A stretch of 51,206 bases of DNA, taken from positions 1 through 51,206 of the IMG/VR virus record IMGVR_UViG_3300008222_000010. The stretch is one strand, 5' to 3'. Source of the DNA: a virus. Lineage: Duplodnaviria > Caudoviricetes. This document shows, piece by piece, positions 2,324 to 36,096 of the stretch. Made by a program: the position numbers and the translations under genes. The notes under the pieces are model-generated. The model saw only the letters and a program-made list of their open reading frames with translations, did no database searches and was not told the DNA's origin. Position 1 is the first letter of the stretch; every line of letters starts with the position of its first letter.

Positions 2324-3292
2324 CTAAAGAGTGGTAACTAGCACACCAGCGGTATCTTTTACGTCAGTAGCAACGCGATCCCAGTTTGTGGCTGTAGCTA
2401 GAGCTGCATCATTAGGTGAGCGACCACCATTGGCAACGTCCCACGTGTAACCTTTCATGCCTAGATTGAAGTCAAACTCGGCCTTCATGGTGCGCTCAAC
2501 GTTAACTTTGTCGATAGCTTGGTCATGATAAACTTCGTAGTTACCATTATCTTCTAGTAATATAGCGCCGCGAACAAGGCCTAATTGATGGTAGTGATGA
2601 ACGCCAGCCGAAACAGCATCAACAACAACCAAGCTAGGACTATCAGTAACGATAAGTGGGCGACCCGCAGAATCAGCAACAATTGATACCGAACCGAACT
2701 CAAATAGGCGCTCTGCATTCTGTAGATTGGCATCGATAATGTCAGTCTTAGACGTAGAGTGCATAACCCACGCAGCGATTGCAGAAGAGCGATCTCCAAA
2801 CTTACCAGCGCCAGCGTTTAAAGCTCGTAACGAAGCCTTACCGCTTGTGGCTACGTGTACCAAATCAGTTACAGCGCTAGTAGCAGCAACGTAAGACGCG
2901 ATAGCAGAGTTCAGCATATATTGCATAATACCGACTGCAACTTGCTCACCGAAAGCCATACCAGCTTGCTCAGGATCCTCTTGAATCCACTTGAATTGCG
3001 TAGGAGTAACGCGCATCAACGCAGTACCACCGCCAACTTTTACGCTAGCTTCTTGTAATTGCTCTAAATCAACAGCAGTTAAATCACCAGTTGCGCCAGA
3101 GTCGCGGTTGATAACGATATTAGCGATAGAGCCGAATAACGTATCGTAATCATAATCACCGATATTGCTACCAGCGCTTAGTGTGATAGTGCCGTTTGAC
3201 GCACCGTTAAAAAGGTCGACTTGCTGACCGATTACTTCTGTAGCAGCGCTGTAAGCGAAGCTATTGAAGATTTGCATGTTTGCTGTGCCCAT
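2324..3292 (-). CDS. major capsid protein
   Basis: 322 aa after the scaffold; MQIFN...QQVDLFNGASNG and KGYTWD...SPNDAALATATNW...KDTAGV motifs typical of a gammaproteobacterial siphovirus capsid family; followed by a terminator. Confidence 0.85.
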   Translation of the reverse strand: MGTANMQIFNSFAYSAATEVIGQQVDLFNGASNGTITLSAGSNIGDYDYDTLFGSIANIVINRDSGATGDLTAVDLEQLQEASVKVGGGTALMRVTPTQFKWIQEDPEQAGMAFGEQVAVGIMQYMLNSAIASYVAATSAVTDLVHVATSGKASLRALNAGAGKFGDRSSAIAAWVMHSTSKTDIIDANLQNAERLFEFGSVSIVADSAGRPLIVTDSPSLVVVDAVSAGVHHYHQLGLVRGAILLEDNGNYEVYHDQAIDKVNVERTMKAEFDFNLGMKGYTWDVANGGRSPNDAALATATNWDRVATDVKDTAGVLVTTL

Positions 3293-24979: not shown

Positions 24980-25021
24980 AATATTTCCTTAGTTAATTGT
25001 CGTTTCGTTTTATCTGCAACC

Positions 25022-25049
25022 ATCATAACAGCCTGATATCGCATGTCAA
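25022..25049 (-). promoter_or_regulatory. strong early promoter driving the acrIF9 operon
   Basis: A/T UP tract, TTGACA-16-TATGAT with TG extension. Confidence 0.8.
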
Positions 25050-25119
25050 CAATTTATTTGATTAATCTATACATGTAATAAAAACGTGTATAGATAATGG
25101 GATTATGTGTGCATGTTGG

Positions 25120-25480
25120 TTGAAAAAGTCGTTAGCAGAGAATTCGGAGGGGCTACCGACTTTGCTACCGACTTTTCTTCTCTAAGTTATTGAATATATT
25201 ATATATATAGATATATATATATAGTTAATAGTTAATAGTTAATAGTTATCCTTCTTTTTTTTAAAAATACCTAAAAACAGACTATAAGTAAACTCTCTTT
25301 TAACTATTAAGTGTGTATATCTATATATGTATCTATACTACTGCTATCGACTTTTGACTTTCGACCAGCGGCTTTTGGCTTTTACTTCATAAGAATCAGT
25401 CACTTAAAAGTAAAACTCGCAAGTAAAGTCGTGCGTTATCGACTTTTCTCCTGCTATCGACTCCTGACTTTCGGTTAAAA
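25120..25480. other. putative replication origin
   Basis: multiple GCTA(C/T/A)CGACT iterons (25124, 25152, 25164, 25341, 25451) flanking an (AT)n tract and (TAGTTAA)x4 at 25222-25248; directly downstream of the primase gene. Confidence 0.75.
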
Positions 25481-25486
25481 AACGCA

Positions 25487-25510
25487 CAAAAAAGCCGCAA
25501 TTAAGCGGCT
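25487..25510 (-). terminator. intrinsic terminator after the primase gene
   Basis: AGCCGC-ttaatt-GCGGCT plus a T run. Confidence 0.75.
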
Positions 25511-25529
25511 AAGTGATATTGACTTGTAT

Positions 25530-27851
25530 TTAAGTTAGCATCCAGAGGATATGCTTCTTTTTGTTTCCAACTTTAGGAACTAGCACTTTAGTTGTAGTCC
25601 CTTTATTTTCTAACCAGTCGAGAGCTTTAGAAACATCCTCAGATTTGTAGCTTCTGCATCTGTTTTTAACTTGACCGTGTGGCATTCCCACTTTTTTATC
25701 GAGCATGGATTCGATTCTTGCGATTAAAGCGCCACCTTTATCGTTGTCTTCTTCTGCCATGTTCGACTTAGCGAGCCTTATTTTGCCGTCAATATCCTTT
25801 CTAACAAGAGCGTAAGCCCACGAAACATCATCAACGTGACGCGTTTTATCGTCATGCCCGATAGCTAGGACGAAGCTTATTTTAAGGACTAGCTCGAACC
25901 CTCGGCGTACAACCGCCTCTAACCCGGTAGCTCCTTTGTGGTGCTCTGCGTAATCAAAGAAGAAGTCTTGAATGTCATCTAGTGCCTTTGCAGCTTCCGA
26001 ACTTGTCTTGACGGGCGTCCTTTCCTGCCTAAACTCGATGCGTTTATCTGCTAGTGTGTCGGCGCAGCCACCGCCAGCTAATGATGAGATGCGCATTTTC
26101 AGAATATCGCTCATTGGCTTTTTCTTAAATCCTCGCTTAGCCCTAGGGTTGGTTTCCTTCTCTTCAAATACAAGAGAGCGACCAATAAACCCGTTGGTTG
26201 AGTTCTCGTAGCTCACTACGCTGTTGAACGTTACTGGGGTTGTGTAGCCTATCAGCGATAAGAATGGGCGCACTAGGCCGCCTGTCATTATCTCATTTGA
26301 AAGCTGTGTTAACTGTTCTGCCTTCTCTTCGTTGCGCTCGGGGTTGGTGTTTTCGCTTGCAAGTTTTCTAAAGTGCGCCGCTTGCTTGTTTAGCTCACCA
26401 ACTGATGATGACATTAAATCAGAACTAAGAAGCATTCTGTCGTCAGCTTTACTATACGCAGACATTAACGTCCCGATAACGCCCTCTAGATATGAAGCGC
26501 CACCCTTGGTACGTGCGTTTTCTATCTTTTGCAGGAATATACCAAGCTCATCCATAATGTAGAAGTTAGCTTGGTGAGCCAGTAGGCCGCGTACAATTTC
26601 CTGCTCAGATTTAATACCGCCCATAGTTGCTGCGCCAAATCCTGCTGCCATGTGTATCTTGGCTTGGGACTGCTGAATGGCCTCCTTACCTGTTGAAGAA
26701 CCTGCAACACATAATATGAACTGGTTTGCAGTCACGCCGTAATCTTCATCAAAATGCGTTAAGCCGCCGATATTACCAAGCGATGACAAGGCAGACGCTA
26801 CCGCTAATTGTTCACGTGGGAAACGAGAATTGCTATTGATGTATTCCACTAAATCACCAGCCAAGCCCGTACATTTTAGTAGGTCTACTTTATCTATGTT
26901 GACCGGATGGCCACGCCTAGCGGTTGGTTCTTCCACTACTTCACTTGATGGCATGACCTCATTTCCGGTCATTACTAAGTCTGTTACGAATGTTACGGAC
27001 TCCTTGTAACCTGCCTCCTCCGCTAAATGCTTTAACGTGCCAAATGTCACTGGGCTGCTAGACTTGCCGAAGCTGTGCCACTTTTGGTTGATCGCCTCAT
27101 GCCCGCAATAGTCTGTACCTTTGGCGCTCCAATCATCCCACAGTAAATCACCCTCACCGTTAGTAGCGTCATGAATAGCCATACCTATAGATACCCACTG
27201 CTCGTAGTCGCAATCGGGCGATATAAACTCAAGCATGGAGTTAATATCTTCGTTACTAACCTCTTGTGAGCAAGCAAAGTTATCACTACTCGGTGTACGC
27301 ACAGCTCTTGTTAAAAGCTCGATAAGTTCACTTGGCATATCGCCAATATCACTTGGGTGACCCTTTTCGGTCGAGTAAGTGCTTCCGCTCTTATGCATTG
27401 AGCCAGAGCCGACCACGAACCCGTTGTATTTAAAATCGATGCCCGGGTAGCTCTCAAGCTTACCAAGTAGGCGAACATCATCTGGCGCGTTGAAGTATAT
27501 GTGATGACCACCGCCACCAGTGGCAACAACGAACTCCGATGCGTCCTTGTAATCTATGCCTGTGTCCTTACACATTTTAACGTAGCTTGCATCACCACCG
27601 TTTCTAGGGTCGATATCTATAATAAGTAGGCCATCGACAATTACGCCGAAGCCAGTCTTGAATTGACCTGTCATTTCCATGACATCAAGCTGATCATCTG
27701 TCCATGCTGGTGTGTGCTGCCAGCTACTAACGCGGGGGTGCTTATATAGCGCTTCACATTCCACGTTGCCACACTCACAATTGCCGTTGGCATCAACACC
27801 ATTTAAACCAAATACCTTTACATCTGCCTCTACATAATTCCATACCGACAT
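25530..27851 (-). CDS. bifunctional primase-polymerase (Prim-Pol + PriCT-2 + helicase-like domain)
   Basis: CECG..C...KHP, IIDIDPRNGG, TGGGGHHIYF, YEQWVSIGMAIH..WDDWS, AGSSTGKE, MDELG. Confidence 0.9.
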   Translation of the reverse strand: MSVWNYVEADVKVFGLNGVDANGNCECGNVECEALYKHPRVSSWQHTPAWTDDQLDVMEMTGQFKTGFGVIVDGLLIIDIDPRNGGDASYVKMCKDTGIDYKDASEFVVATGGGGHHIYFNAPDDVRLLGKLESYPGIDFKYNGFVVGSGSMHKSGSTYSTEKGHPSDIGDMPSELIELLTRAVRTPSSDNFACSQEVSNEDINSMLEFISPDCDYEQWVSIGMAIHDATNGEGDLLWDDWSAKGTDYCGHEAINQKWHSFGKSSSPVTFGTLKHLAEEAGYKESVTFVTDLVMTGNEVMPSSEVVEEPTARRGHPVNIDKVDLLKCTGLAGDLVEYINSNSRFPREQLAVASALSSLGNIGGLTHFDEDYGVTANQFILCVAGSSTGKEAIQQSQAKIHMAAGFGAATMGGIKSEQEIVRGLLAHQANFYIMDELGIFLQKIENARTKGGASYLEGVIGTLMSAYSKADDRMLLSSDLMSSSVGELNKQAAHFRKLASENTNPERNEEKAEQLTQLSNEIMTGGLVRPFLSLIGYTTPVTFNSVVSYENSTNGFIGRSLVFEEKETNPRAKRGFKKKPMSDILKMRISSLAGGGCADTLADKRIEFRQERTPVKTSSEAAKALDDIQDFFFDYAEHHKGATGLEAVVRRGFELVLKISFVLAIGHDDKTRHVDDVSWAYALVRKDIDGKIRLAKSNMAEEDNDKGGALIARIESMLDKKVGMPHGQVKNRCRSYKSEDVSKALDWLENKGTTTKVLVPKVGNKKKHILWMLT

Positions 27852-32583: not shown

Positions 32584-32825
32584 AACCAGACCACTGCCAT
32601 GAGCATGACCTAAAGTGGGCTGACGAACTAATAAACAGCCTACCTAGGGAGTTACACTTAAGGGTTTGCTTGGCTTACTGCAATGCGTATAAAGATGCGT
32701 ACAGCAACGAGCCAATAGAGCACAAAAAAGAGGGCGCTGCTAGAATTGAGGCAAATACTAGACTCAGGAAGTTTGTAGCTAAATACAACGAAAAAAACAA
32801 AGACAATTGGAGCTTTAACAAATGA
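32580..32825 (+). CDS. conserved hypothetical phage protein
   Basis: W....I..LP......Y...Y......EP..HKK...AR..AN.RLR.FV pattern. Confidence 0.65.
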   Translation: MKPDHCHEHDLKWADELINSLPRELHLRVCLAYCNAYKDAYSNEPIEHKKEGAARIEANTRLRKFVAKYNEKNKDNWSFNK

Positions 32826-33316
32826 ATTTATTTCAAATGAACCACCAGCAGCGAGAATTACTATCAGTTATCGAAAACGGTGAATTATCACCAGAGGACG
32901 CGGCTGACACATTGGACGCAATGGACTATGATTTTGACAAAAAGGTCGAAGACATATGCCACGTGCTACGTGACTTAACATCGAGAGAGCAGTCGATAAA
33001 GAATGAAATGGAAAGACTGACCAGTCTCAAGTCGTCAGTGTCTAATAATATTATTCGACTTAAAGAGTACGCGCTACAAGGTATGATATCCAGTGGGAAG
33101 ACGTCTATAAAGTCAGACCTGTTTAACGTGTCATTAAGAAAAGGTCGTCAAGTTGTTGATGTTAAATGCCATGAAAGCATACCTGACGAGTACGTTAGAA
33201 TTACGCCAGCAACAGAATCACCGGACAAGGCAAAGATACTAAAAGCCCTGAAAAGCGGTGAAAAAGTAGACGGGTGCGCAATCACTACAGGTAAGCAATC
33301 ACTAAACATAAAATAA
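32822..33316 (+). CDS. siphovirus Gp157-family protein
   Basis: ADTLDAM...K......EMERL...IPDEY.....PDKAKI.KALKSGE.V.G...SL.IK. Confidence 0.85.
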   Translation: MNLFQMNHQQRELLSVIENGELSPEDAADTLDAMDYDFDKKVEDICHVLRDLTSREQSIKNEMERLTSLKSSVSNNIIRLKEYALQGMISSGKTSIKSDLFNVSLRKGRQVVDVKCHESIPDEYVRITPATESPDKAKILKALKSGEKVDGCAITTGKQSLNIK

Positions 33317-33319
33317 AGC

Positions 33320-33351
33320 TTGCAATTAAAATCTAGATGCTTTATTATAAT
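33320..33351 (+). promoter_or_regulatory. sigma70-type promoter of the non-coding locus
   Basis: TTGCAA-17-TATTAT with overlapping TATAAT. Confidence 0.7.
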
Positions 33352-33356
33352 AAACA

Positions 33357-33975
33357 TTGAAGTACGGGGATGAAGTTTATCCCTAAGCGGTTTTAGTAGA
33401 TGCCGATTGCCTGTTGTGATGATTCCCTTCCTTAATCATTATAACGCTCTCAAGGTGATAATCTGTAGGCGGGTTTAGATTCCCTCTCCGCGCTGGTCAC
33501 GTTGCCGATTCGACCGTTTATTTTGTGTAGCGCCTTAGATGTTTAGGGTGTTATTCAAAGTACTTGTACTTAGGCAAAGTTATTACTATTCAGCGCTTGG
33601 TCAGCGTGCCGATCCGACCATGAGACAACATTAAATCTGTCAAGGCAAAGACATAAAAATACACTTTATTAGCCTTATTGCGGAGTTAGCGGCAAATAGG
33701 TAGCGTAACTGTGAGTTGGCCGCTTTAAAAGCCTACAAGAGCCTAGAGATGGCCTAAAACATCCGACTGATAGCCGTAAGTTATCAACTATATTTGTATG
33801 CGCTCTATGTAATTGTCGAATTCGGCTTGCCAGTCGTCAGGGTCTTTTAGAGCGCATAACAAATATAAACAATGCACCTCCCGCTTGAAACGGCTGGATA
33901 TAACAACTGTCAGCGAAAACGCGTAAGTAGCTGACGGCGAAATAGTTGAGATATTACTCGGCAGGTGCGCCATAT
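33357..33975 (+). ncRNA. cluster of putative structured non-coding RNAs
   Basis: no credible + strand ORF; consecutive stems whose G-U pairs work only on the + strand; repeated ~27-nt motif. Confidence 0.65.
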
Positions 33976-33988
33976 TAAAGGTGTAAAA

Positions 33989-34270
33989 ATGATATACGAA
34001 GCTAGCGATATAAATTCAATGCTAGATGTTATTGATAAAGAGTTAGGCCAAGATATGTGGTCTGGTGATCTTGAATTCATAGCTGACAGCATAAAAATCA
34101 AGCATGTATCTAGAGTCGACACAGCAAGACGAGAGGTTGTGGTGCTCATTGATAGTGCGGAAGGTCGAATATATAAAGGGCTAATTAACGAAAGGTCGCT
34201 ACTAAAGATTAGGTCTTTTAAAGCTACGTACTCGGGGAAAGTTATCTTCGAATGGAGCGCTAAGGATTAA
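33989..34270 (+). CDS. hypothetical protein embedded in the ncRNA locus
   Basis: MIYEASD... after AAGGTG RBS. Confidence 0.55.
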   Translation: MIYEASDINSMLDVIDKELGQDMWSGDLEFIADSIKIKHVSRVDTARREVVVLIDSAEGRIYKGLINERSLLKIRSFKATYSGKVIFEWSAKD

Positions 34271-34410
34271 CGAATTAACAACACCTTCCACGCCTAACTT
34301 AACAATGCGCTAATCGGAGTGTTACTATTATAACTATATCGCATTGCCGCACACGCGGTTACCCCTATGCTGAGTAAGTACGTATAATAACTATATCCAT
34401 CTGCATTTTC

Positions 34411-34436
34411 GGCCTCTTAATTGAGGTCTTTTTTTT
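34411..34436 (+). terminator. intrinsic terminator
   Basis: GGCCTC-ttaatt-GAGGTC-T8. Confidence 0.85.
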
Positions 34437-34451
34437 GCCTAAAATAAAGTG

Positions 34452-34506: not shown

Positions 34507-36096
34507 ATGACAAAGTTAAGGCAAGACGATTTAATAGAGTGCGTAAGACTCAAAGAGCAAGAGGGTATGTCGTATCGTCCTATTGCCGAGGTTATGGGCG
34601 TGACGGTAACGTCGATTGGTGAGTTTTTTCGCCGTAAGACATTTAAAGATTTTTGGGAACAGCACGACAAGAAGCCGATTGCAAAGGGCACCATTCTAAC
34701 CAACAAAGATAAGCGCGAGCCATTAGCGGGTAAACGTTTCGTGTTTACGTCAGCTCAGAACAACACACACGTACACAAACCGTTTCTTGATGCGATACTA
34801 CAGTATTGTGAGTATAACGGCGCAGAATTGATTGTAAGCGGTTTTACCTACGACAAATCTGGGCGTCAAAGTAGCGAAAAGGGCGATGACGGATTGTGGT
34901 ATGACCCTGCAATTACTCCATACCTAATTAACGAAGAGCGCCAAATAGCTAAAGGCCTAGTCTGGTGCGGTGATGTTAATACCCTACCAACAAACAAAAG
35001 TCCAACCACGCCGTTTGTTAACCACACGAACCATGATAGCGCGATTATCCCACACGCTAAATTGCAGCTGCGCTCAGTCGCAACACCAAAGGCAATGGAC
35101 GCTCGATTACTGTATTCGACTGGCTGTATTACGCAACGTAACTACATACAGAAGACAGCCGGGCAAGTTGCTAGTCATCACCATTCATTTAGTGCGTTAG
35201 TTGTTGAGATTGATAGCGACGGCGATTGGTTTGTGCGGCAGTTATGCGCCGAGAAATTAACTGGCGCGTTTTATGACCTAGGTAAATACTACACTGGTAC
35301 TGGCGTAGCTAACAGCGAATCGGTAGAGGCTATTAATTTTGGCGATATCCACAGTGCTAAACCAGATGATACTGTGGCGCTAGCCAGTTGGTGCGGTAAA
35401 GATTCGATGCTTGATGTGTTACGCCCTAGGTTTGTGTTCCTTCATGATACGCTAGACCAGCAAGCGCGTAATCACCATAACGTGCGCGACCCTCATTTCA
35501 TGTTTGCTATGCATCACCATAAAACCGAATGTGTACGCGGAGAGATTGAGTTAACTGTTGATACCATGCGTGAATTTGAGCGTGATTTTTGTACCACCGT
35601 AGTAGTTGAATCTAATCATGATAAATCAATCGAGAAATGGTTGAAAGAACAGGACTATCGGCACGACCCGGTAAACGCAATATTCTTTCTGGAGTTGCAG
35701 TTAGCTAAGTACAATTCAATCGTAAGCGGCGGTAATTTTAGCGCGTTCGAACATGCATGTAGCATGGTGGGTTTTGGTGGCGACGATGCAATATTCCTAC
35801 GCGAAGATGAATCGTTTATGATTGCTAACGGAATTGAATGCGGCGCACACAGTCACCTAGGTTCGAACGGTGGTCGCGGTAGCGTTCAAGCATACGTTGT
35901 GACGGGCGTTAGACACAATATAGGCCATAGCCATAGCGCAACGATTAAAGACGGCGTATGGCAAGCTGGCGTATCAGGTTCGCTCGATATGGGGTACAAC
36001 TCCGGCAATAGCAGTTGGTCGCACAGCCATATCATCACATACAAAAACGGAAAACGTCAAATGATTACAATTAAAAATGGGAAGTGGCGAGCGTGA
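34507..36096 (+). CDS. T5 A1-like protein: HTH + calcineurin-like metallophosphoesterase/nuclease
   Basis: FTSAQNNT.VH, GDIH, FLHD, NHH, ESNHD, HLG.NG.RG, IGHSHS, DMGYN..SSWSHSH motifs. Confidence 0.75.
   Translation: MTKLRQDDLIECVRLKEQEGMSYRPIAEVMGVTVTSIGEFFRRKTFKDFWEQHDKKPIAKGTILTNKDKREPLAGKRFVFTSAQNNTHVHKPFLDAILQYCEYNGAELIVSGFTYDKSGRQSSEKGDDGLWYDPAITPYLINEERQIAKGLVWCGDVNTLPTNKSPTTPFVNHTNHDSAIIPHAKLQLRSVATPKAMDARLLYSTGCITQRNYIQKTAGQVASHHHSFSALVVEIDSDGDWFVRQLCAEKLTGAFYDLGKYYTGTGVANSESVEAINFGDIHSAKPDDTVALASWCGKDSMLDVLRPRFVFLHDTLDQQARNHHNVRDPHFMFAMHHHKTECVRGEIELTVDTMREFERDFCTTVVVESNHDKSIEKWLKEQDYRHDPVNAIFFLELQLAKYNSIVSGGNFSAFEHACSMVGFGGDDAIFLREDESFMIANGIECGAHSHLGSNGGRGSVQAYVVTGVRHNIGHSHSATIKDGVWQAGVSGSLDMGYNSGNSSWSHSHIITYKNGKRQMITIKNGKWRA

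Follow-up and report, generated by a model that had tools for sequence, protein, structure and literature searches.

A modular run of structured RNAs in a siphovirus replication block, with a possible role against host defences

What does a phage genome encode in a stretch where it encodes no protein? The question is raised by positions 33357-33975 of a 51,206-bp IMG/VR virus record with a completeness rating of 100%, which was analysed over its whole length and is called the window hereafter (positions without a record name refer to it). The phage is a siphovirus, as portal, major head, terminase, tape-measure and tail-fibre genes indicate, and its closest GenBank terminases are ~61% identical. 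The claim of a first-pass annotation that the locus lacks open reading frames (ORFs) is borne out: 33358-33787 is the longest run in the window without an ORF of at least 45 amino acids (aa) in any of the six frames, and the only longer frame in the remainder of 33357-33975 is a 61-aa antisense ORF. Our reading, to which we give a probability of about 0.5, is that the locus is a modular operon of small RNAs, probably processed, that act as anti-defence decoys. Its parts differ in firmness: that this is a real structured noncoding RNA locus is very likely, that it is modular and processed is rather probable, and the anti-defence role is a tentative proposal that we rate somewhat below even chances.

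The principal evidence comes from the 3' module, a four-way-junction RNA of ~100 nucleotides (nt) with four helices, P1 to P4 (Table 1). Homologues were found in Vibrio phage 1.060.A (MG592438.1), in an IMG/VR contig retrieved by pattern scan (L083) and in a 1.7-kb metagenome contig (L142), and these together with the window make up the four-sequence alignment behind the counts that follow. The consensus of 24 pairs (94 cells) is 97.9% paired, and 11 of the 24 pairs change on both sides; none of 500 shuffles reaches any of these measures, and the same structure slid along the alignment yields 32-39% pairing and at most two two-sided changes. P2, P3 and P4 covary freely across the four homologues, and P1 (UGCACCU/AGGUGCG), the leader AAYAAU, the junction strands and the 3' CCA are invariant in all of them, with similarity stopping directly after the CCA. 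The earlier statement that neither a cloverleaf nor a CCA end was to be seen is therefore wrong, given this four-way junction followed by an invariant CCA. The covariance model of the RNA, R1, scores 117.5 bits for the one copy in the window, the next match reaching 11 bits, and detects a single copy each in the L083 record and in 1.060.A. The element is a genuine new structured RNA with no Rfam match.

The likeness of this RNA to tRNA is one of architecture. The two share four helices on one junction, a closing stem and a 3' end of purine plus CCA (G-CCA after P1 in all four sequences), and the closing stem of 6-7 pairs (8 with a U-G at position -1) is stacked on a stem of 3-5 pairs. What sets the four-way RNA apart from tRNA is the lack of a T-loop, a D-loop and a 7-nt anticodon loop: the P3 loop measures 15-18 nt and the P4 loops 4-6 nt, and the junction strands are 8-11 nt long. 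ARAGORN returned no tRNA or transfer-messenger RNA (tmRNA) gene in the window at default settings and none at ps80; the calls that appear at ps60 are all intron-bearing or permuted, and we read them as noise. Tools for standard tRNAs are blind to the four-way RNA, and the same tools detect the tRNA-Gly beside it in 1.060.A and L142. Rfam gave no match at gathering score in the window; three matches at E<=10 within 33200-34100 lay far below that score and were read as chance. Both searches, proposed in the first-pass annotation, thus place no known family within the locus. Its verdict of "no recognisable class" holds as regards Rfam and needs amending in two respects: the 3' module has a tRNA-like topology with GCCA, and the L083 unit holds a known Rfam family, described below.

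It is conceivable that the four-way RNA is a working tRNA-like molecule, charged or otherwise used by tRNA enzymes in phage translation or replication. An invariant closing stem and GCCA on a four-way junction are what would be expected of identity elements, and the RNA adjoins tRNA-Gly twice. However, it is invisible to ARAGORN and to the Rfam tRNA model (no tRNA match at E<=10 over 33200-34100), its P3 loop does not have the form of an anticodon loop and its P4 loops are not T-loops, and we regard such a role as quite unlikely. The 5' strand of P1 also resembles the anti-Shine-Dalgarno sequence; any reading of the invariance of P1 is speculative.

Where else the module occurs bears on whether it stands by itself. 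Vibrio phage 1.060.A was the one match of the window locus in a blastn search of GenBank phages (78% identical over 33867-33972, in an unannotated gap), and there, in the head/lysis region, the four-way RNA comes directly after a same-strand tRNA-Gly(UCC). The sequence immediately downstream recurs in eight close relatives of 1.060.A that have neither the tRNA-Gly nor the four-way element, and in one relative a small ORF occupies the slot; the cassette of tRNA-Gly and four-way RNA is therefore accessory and mobile. We note that the two RNAs lie in a ~0.6-kb unannotated stretch (MG592438.1 2590-3290) running from a promoter-like site at 2646-2673 to a terminator-like site at 3238-3257, and that the feature table of this record places the tRNA on the - strand of the locus, ARAGORN and Rfam on the + strand. 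In L142, the four-way RNA stands ~50 nt before another, quite different tRNA-Gly(UCC); in a blastn search with this contig, only 1.060.A matched at the module among the best 20 of 115 records, the other 19 matching the tRNA-Gly part. Between the two L142 RNAs lies a short hairpin (1400-1352, - strand) ending in CGACCA, an end resembling that (UCGACCA or UCGACCG) of a 26-nt box found in the window and L083.

Beyond these records the module is rare, in the sense of rare among exact matches to the patterns scanned. Pattern scans of viral contigs returned 2, 4, 69, 27, 1, 11 and 13 stretches, of which only L083 was real, the others being judged chance or coding matches; the scan of metagenome contigs returned 80 stretches, only L142 being real, and that of genome contigs none that was real among at least 120 matches listed. 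A search anchored on the Gp157/Gam-like protein encoded just upstream brought up no homologous locus, and blastn of the L083 unit against the phage collection no match. R1 gave five matches (22.6-30.5 bits) in 151 sampled bacterial genomes, and all were rejected: three fall within long open frames (in one case that of an ABC-ATPase gene), and two are intergenic, without CCA and poorly paired. The E-values of R1, which had a short calibration, are too optimistic, with false positives at 30 bits, as its score of 30 bits inside an ABC-transporter ATPase gene in L334 and L335 (1501-1603) warns. The 26-nt box, sought as a pattern with two mismatches allowed, was found in none of 401 sampled bacterial genomes.

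L083 holds more than the 3' module. Its minus strand has a ~0.65-kb ORF-free stretch, between an SSB (single-stranded DNA-binding protein) gene and a gene for a phosphoesterase-type "DNA repair exonuclease", with a promoter-like site and an intrinsic terminator of its own. The blocks in common with the window are the promoter/start region (73% identical), the 26-nt box (26/26), the arms of a long hairpin (86% and 89%) and the four-way RNA (67%). At the protein level the 13.8-kb L083 locus has counterparts of only four window ORFs, with identities of 24.5-54.4%. The RNA sequences, 67-100% identical, are thus far better kept than the proteins, which argues that selection acts on the RNA. The same comparison bears on the idea that the locus is the decaying remains of a tRNA cluster without present function. 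A tRNA-like topology, and tRNAs next door in other phages, would agree with such an origin, but the 26/26 identity and the compensatory changes have been kept between phages that share 24-54% identity in their proteins, which makes mere debris extremely improbable.

How well the rest of the locus is supported as RNA differs from segment to segment. The stems reported earlier at 33366-33384, 33413-33445, 33528-33553, 33769-33787 and 33789-33807/33848-33867, as well as the multibranch element closed by UGCACCU/AGGUGCG, are present as described, and the proposed preference for the + strand also stands, the + strand fold being more stable than the - strand fold in every segment tested. Only two elements fold above the level of shuffled sequences, the 19-bp hairpin at z = -5.1 and the multibranch element at z = -2.2. 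Support can be claimed for the four-way element, the 19-bp hairpin and the 5' hairpins, and has to be denied to the stems within 33623-33787. Covariation among relatives, the check that the first-pass annotation had named, favours the four-way RNA.

At the 5' end lies a multi-hairpin RNA of ~160 nt, RNA-1, whose 3' end is the invariant 26-nt box (33490-33515) and whose homologue is L083 3777-3579 on the - strand. RNAalifold gives for the two sequences a consensus of 27 pairs, 100% paired in both; five pairs, in H2 and H3, are changed on both sides (slid controls, none), in a structure predicted on the same two-sequence alignment as used for counting pairs and with 17 of 500 shuffles reaching this level. 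The thermodynamic z of 33361-33517 is -0.5. The next segment, 33518-33622 (z = -1.6 on the + strand and -0.7 on the - strand), comprises a G-U-rich hairpin, hairpin A, and a diverged second box. No separate homologue of hairpin A was found, and by eye it resembles the start of the long hairpin 3' of the box in L083. The two window boxes form a repeat family (D1) of two copies with a 22-nt core at 82% identity, and the second box is 82.6% identical to the box of L083. Two readings of the box made by eye, one as tmRNA-like and one pairing its tail with the 5' end of the locus, did not hold in both phages and were dropped; the complement of the box loop, considered as a target, has 13 matches in the window against 13.2 expected. 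The stems that follow belong to a window-specific spacer (z = -0.4 for 33676-33790 and -1.05 for 33623-33690), and no conserved L083 block maps within 33623-33784.

The long hairpin has a + strand z of -5.1 in the window and in L083. The minus strand of the L083 copy reaches only -1.9, with a folding energy of -16.3 kcal/mol against -25.3 kcal/mol in the + sense, and this much poorer fold points to RNA rather than DNA. Between window and L083 its 19 pairs are 97.4% paired, with two compensatory changes and one wobble change (C-G to U-G), a covariation that on two sequences is not significant (111 of 500 shuffles reach it). These observations are of consequence for the view that the locus is a DNA-level element such as a replication origin or a recombination site. 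Its location would suit such an element, between Sak4, SSB, helicase and Gp157/Gam-like genes and the phosphoesterase gene in both phages, within a replication/recombination block, and the locus does have repeats and inverted repeats. However, only the + strand accommodates the G-U pairs and the compensatory changes, the 3' module is also found in the head/lysis region of another phage, and the repeats come in two copies and are not iteron-like. We give this view hardly any credence.

Is the run transcribed as a unit? The promoter claimed ahead of the locus corresponds to a sigma-70-like site matching at 9 of 12 positions. The region holds eight promoter-like sites, no excess over the 5.5 +/- 2.1 of shuffled sequences, and we credit the one at 33320-33348 because L083 has TTTACA-17-TAATAT at the equivalent place. 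The conserved AGTACGGGG starts at 33361, shortly 3' of this site, and transcription would start near 33355. No terminator-like site lies between the RNA run and ORF93, a small ORF downstream; the next one on the + strand is at 34411-34428, past ORF93. In L083, the promoter-like site and the intrinsic terminator enclose the homologous ORF-free part of 0.5 kb, which has the look of a unit as well. The ORF-free run would accordingly not end the transcript: it is probably the main part of one promoter-to-terminator unit from ~33355 to 34437, and the unit reaches past 33357-33975 to ORF93, an abiF-like hairpin and the terminator.

That the four-way RNA ends 16 nt before the start codon of ORF93, with no terminator-like site in between, might suggest a cis-acting leader that controls ORF93 and the A1-like gene further downstream. 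Yet the four contexts present four different downstream neighbours, namely an ORF, a terminator, a distant terminator and a tRNA, and a riboswitch or other cis leader is on this account very unlikely.

The run could also be a single large "ornate" RNA, ~0.5-0.6 kb long and functioning as a whole, that might self-assemble, in the manner of GOLLD, ROOL or the ICP1 transcript. Its length and the promoter-to-terminator layout of L083 fit, and the palindromic CGCG kept in the P3 apical loop of all four homologues could make loop-loop dimers. According to PMC7567579, GOLLD, ROOL and the ~800-nt noncoding RNA of ICP1, the most abundant transcript of that phage, are long ORF-free transcripts of unknown role, and large phage noncoding RNAs often lie near tRNAs. 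For the locus, by contrast, no GOLLD or ROOL match was obtained, either with the gathering score over the window or with E<=10 over 33200-34100, and it bears no similarity to the ICP1 gap, so that the ICP1 RNA was rejected as a homologue. Moreover, two other contexts have the 3' module by itself, the window and L083 do not agree in the order and set of their modules, and ORF93 is inserted in the window's unit. Since the 3' module occurs alone beside tRNA-Gly, several RNAs from one precursor fit better than one large RNA, which we deem rather improbable. The polycistronic precursor first put forward is in this respect favoured by separable modules and a free-standing 3' module; its transcription and processing are predicted from sequence.

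A clue to function is provided by the L083 unit. When the homologous loci were scanned with Rfam, a single match exceeded its gathering score, the abiF RNA (RF03085, also AbiFr or RCd22; 43.2 bits, gathering score 37), at L083 3452-3488 on the - strand, between the long hairpin and the four-way RNA. According to 10.1101/2025.04.15.648962 and two reviews (PMC12737573, PMC13064643), the abiF motif is the RNA antitoxin of AbiF (Abi_2, HEPN) in a type III-like toxin-antitoxin system of abortive infection, and it binds the AbiF toxin and neutralises it in cis and in trans. The motif normally sits just upstream of the toxin gene, as in one of the 151 bacterial genomes sampled from the order (L339 1500-2585, + strand), where it scores 35.9 bits directly upstream of an Abi_2 gene (162 bits). 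In departure from this arrangement, the window, the L083 record (67% complete) and MG592438 all gave no Abi_2 (PF07751) match. L083 thus carries an antitoxin RNA whose toxin gene is not seen in the incomplete record and which is presumably co-transcribed with the RNAs of the locus. The window has a diverged copy that stays below threshold (E = 0.076 per genome, and E = 2 in another scan), whose flanks align with those of the L083 abiF RNA, 11 bases immediately 5' of the motif being identical; the copy is placed between ORF93 and the terminator, and no RF03085 match at E<=10 falls within 33200-34100. The other modules of the locus are unrelated to abiF RNA. The "defence decoys" of the first-pass annotation gain circumstantial support from an abiF RNA in a unit where no Abi_2 gene was found, the role itself being one that we infer.

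A precedent in idea is the pseudo-ToxI of phage phiTE, which, according to PMC3475682, is an RNA carried by the phage that imitates a host antitoxin and disarms the toxin of an abortive-infection system. The antitoxin family differs, and the locus has no tandem repeats of the ToxI type, given as ~36 nt long in 10.1101/2025.04.15.648962; a repeat search returns only the two copies of the 22-nt core, 104 nt apart, and no type III antitoxin array.

Under the reading that we favour, of an operon of decoys, the unit would be transcribed as one precursor of several independently folding small RNAs: the ~160-nt multi-hairpin RNA with its 26-nt box (partly duplicated), the 19-bp hairpin and the ~100-nt four-way RNA. 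RNase III cleaves long hairpins of this kind (~19 bp); it would cut in the ~19-bp hairpins of the precursor, the long hairpin being a candidate site. RNase P would cut before P1, between U33873 and G33874, and the 3' end of the four-way RNA would be trimmed back to CCA. This RNA is built like a tRNA precursor, with a U immediately before a closing stem started by G, a stem stacked on it and a 3' G-CCA. RNase P recognises U-1, G+1, pairing with the 3' RCCA and a 12-bp acceptor/T ruler, and cuts phage RNAs other than tRNAs, as set out in PMC11143913. The sequence features among these (U-1, G+1, 3' RCCA) are present in all four homologues, which share the AAYAAU/G junction and GCCA; the stacked length of P1 and P4 is 9-13 bp, and 11-13 bp in three of the four. 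T-even phages make tRNA-like small RNAs, the "species 1 and 2" RNAs of T4 among them. Together with the C4 RNA of P1/P7 and the M3 RNA of phi80, the T-even RNAs appear in PMC11143913 as small stable RNAs with an acceptor-like stem and a 3' CCA, cut from longer transcripts, and some of these RNAs lie in tRNA clusters. In these traits our RNA is like them; it differs from them in having no sequence similarity by blastn (window and L142 copies) and in that its cleavage is predicted.

Once freed, the stable RNAs would bind host defence proteins as decoys or sponges against RNA-based defences, candidate targets being RNA-antitoxin systems of the AbiF type and tRNA-attacking nucleases. The abiF hairpin would take the place of the host's labile antitoxin, and, more speculatively, the four-way RNA would offer its acceptor stem and CCA tail to tRNA-attacking enzymes. 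A bolder form of this proposal sees an RNA anti-defence island, one noncoding operon of unrelated decoys each disarming a different RNA-sensing or RNA-cutting host system; we think that unlikely. Its members would be an orphan AbiF antitoxin, a CCA-tailed mimic of the tRNA acceptor and the box RNA, with modules shuffled among distant phages as genes for anti-defence proteins are, and we hold this cast of members to be similarly doubtful.

Several points weigh against the decoy reading. The abiF motif is in the relative; the window copy, at 17 bits, follows ORF93 and is outside the locus, and an Abi_2 gene could lie in the missing part of the L083 record. For the other modules the anti-defence role would be guilt by association. 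We know of no host RNA that they mimic, the box having no match in the 401 bacterial genomes sampled and the four-way RNA having no credible match in the 151. As a tRNA mimic, the latter lacks the T-, D- and anticodon loops, and the seventh pair of P1 is C:G in two sequences and C-C in two. Finally, the four-way consensus is thin, with four members retrieved through exact-pattern searches, and the covariation of RNA-1 and the long hairpin (17 and 111 of 500 shuffles, as given above) rests on two sequences.

The locus sits inside a + strand replication/recombination gene block (Table 1). The encoded ORF93 has no PHROG or Pfam match, and in a search of 5.8 billion protein clusters it matched only itself, seen on six contigs. 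Elsewhere in the window, the longest stretch without an ORF of at least 60 aa is 24980-25529 (550 nt), of which 24980-25310 ranks second at 45 aa; it lies mostly within the lowest-GC kilobase (0.377 for 25001-26000). The primase gene follows closely, and this stretch may serve as an origin or as a control region.

Table 1. Features of the RNA locus, its surroundings and the corresponding L083 unit. Positions are those of the window unless L083 is named; features are predicted from sequence.
Feature	Position	Strand	Remarks
Upstream neighbours	Gp157/"Gam-like" gene 32822-33316	+	Sak4-like, SSB, helicase, phrog_824, phrog_852, Gp157/"Gam-like" gene
Sigma-70-like promoter	33320-33348	+	TTGCAA-17-TATTAT; 9/12 matches
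RNA-1, multi-hairpin, ~160 nt	33356-33517	+	H1 33366-33384, H2 33388-33405, H3 33413-33445, 3' domain
Hairpin A, ~19 bp, G-U rich	33519-33562	+	Includes stem 33528-33553
Box 2, diverged second copy of 26-nt box	33593-33619	+	104 nt after the first
Window-specific spacer	33623-33787	+	Stems 33680-33765, 33769-33787; structure unsupported
Long hairpin, 19-bp stem	33789-33867	+	33789-33807/33848-33867; one bulged A, variable apical part
Four-way-junction RNA	33873-33972	+	P1-P4, conserved junction strands, CCA at 33970-33972
P1	33873-33879/33963-33969	+	
P2	33880-33897	+	
P3	33907-33914/33930-33937	+	
P4	33946-33950/33957-33961	+	
ORF93, small ORF in same transcription unit	33989-34270	+	93 aa; without known family
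Degenerate abiF-like hairpin	34284-34322	+	RF03085 17 bits, gathering score 37
Intrinsic terminator-like hairpin and T run	34411-34437	+	First + strand site of this kind after the promoter
Downstream neighbours	ORF93; 34507-36096 (phosphoesterase)	+	93-aa ORF, T5 A1-like "DNA transfer" phosphoesterase gene, dNMP (deoxynucleoside monophosphate) kinase gene
L083 promoter-like site	L083 3820-3792	-	TTTACA-17-TAATAT
L083 intrinsic terminator	L083 3305-3286	-	

Phage counter-defence is known mostly as protein, and RNA decoys such as pseudo-ToxI are few, RNA anti-CRISPRs being another type. Against this background, the locus offers a new RNA family, well supported by covariation, whose resemblance in design to a tRNA precursor can be put to the test. 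L083 may carry the first natural phage orphan AbiF antitoxin RNA: our literature search, which did not extend to the primary AbiF-Cas13 paper or to the supplements of papers, met no report of one. To this the locus adds the idea that such RNAs may be bundled in one operon and, if that is true, the ORF-free stretches of phage genomes would be a place to seek RNA counter-defences.

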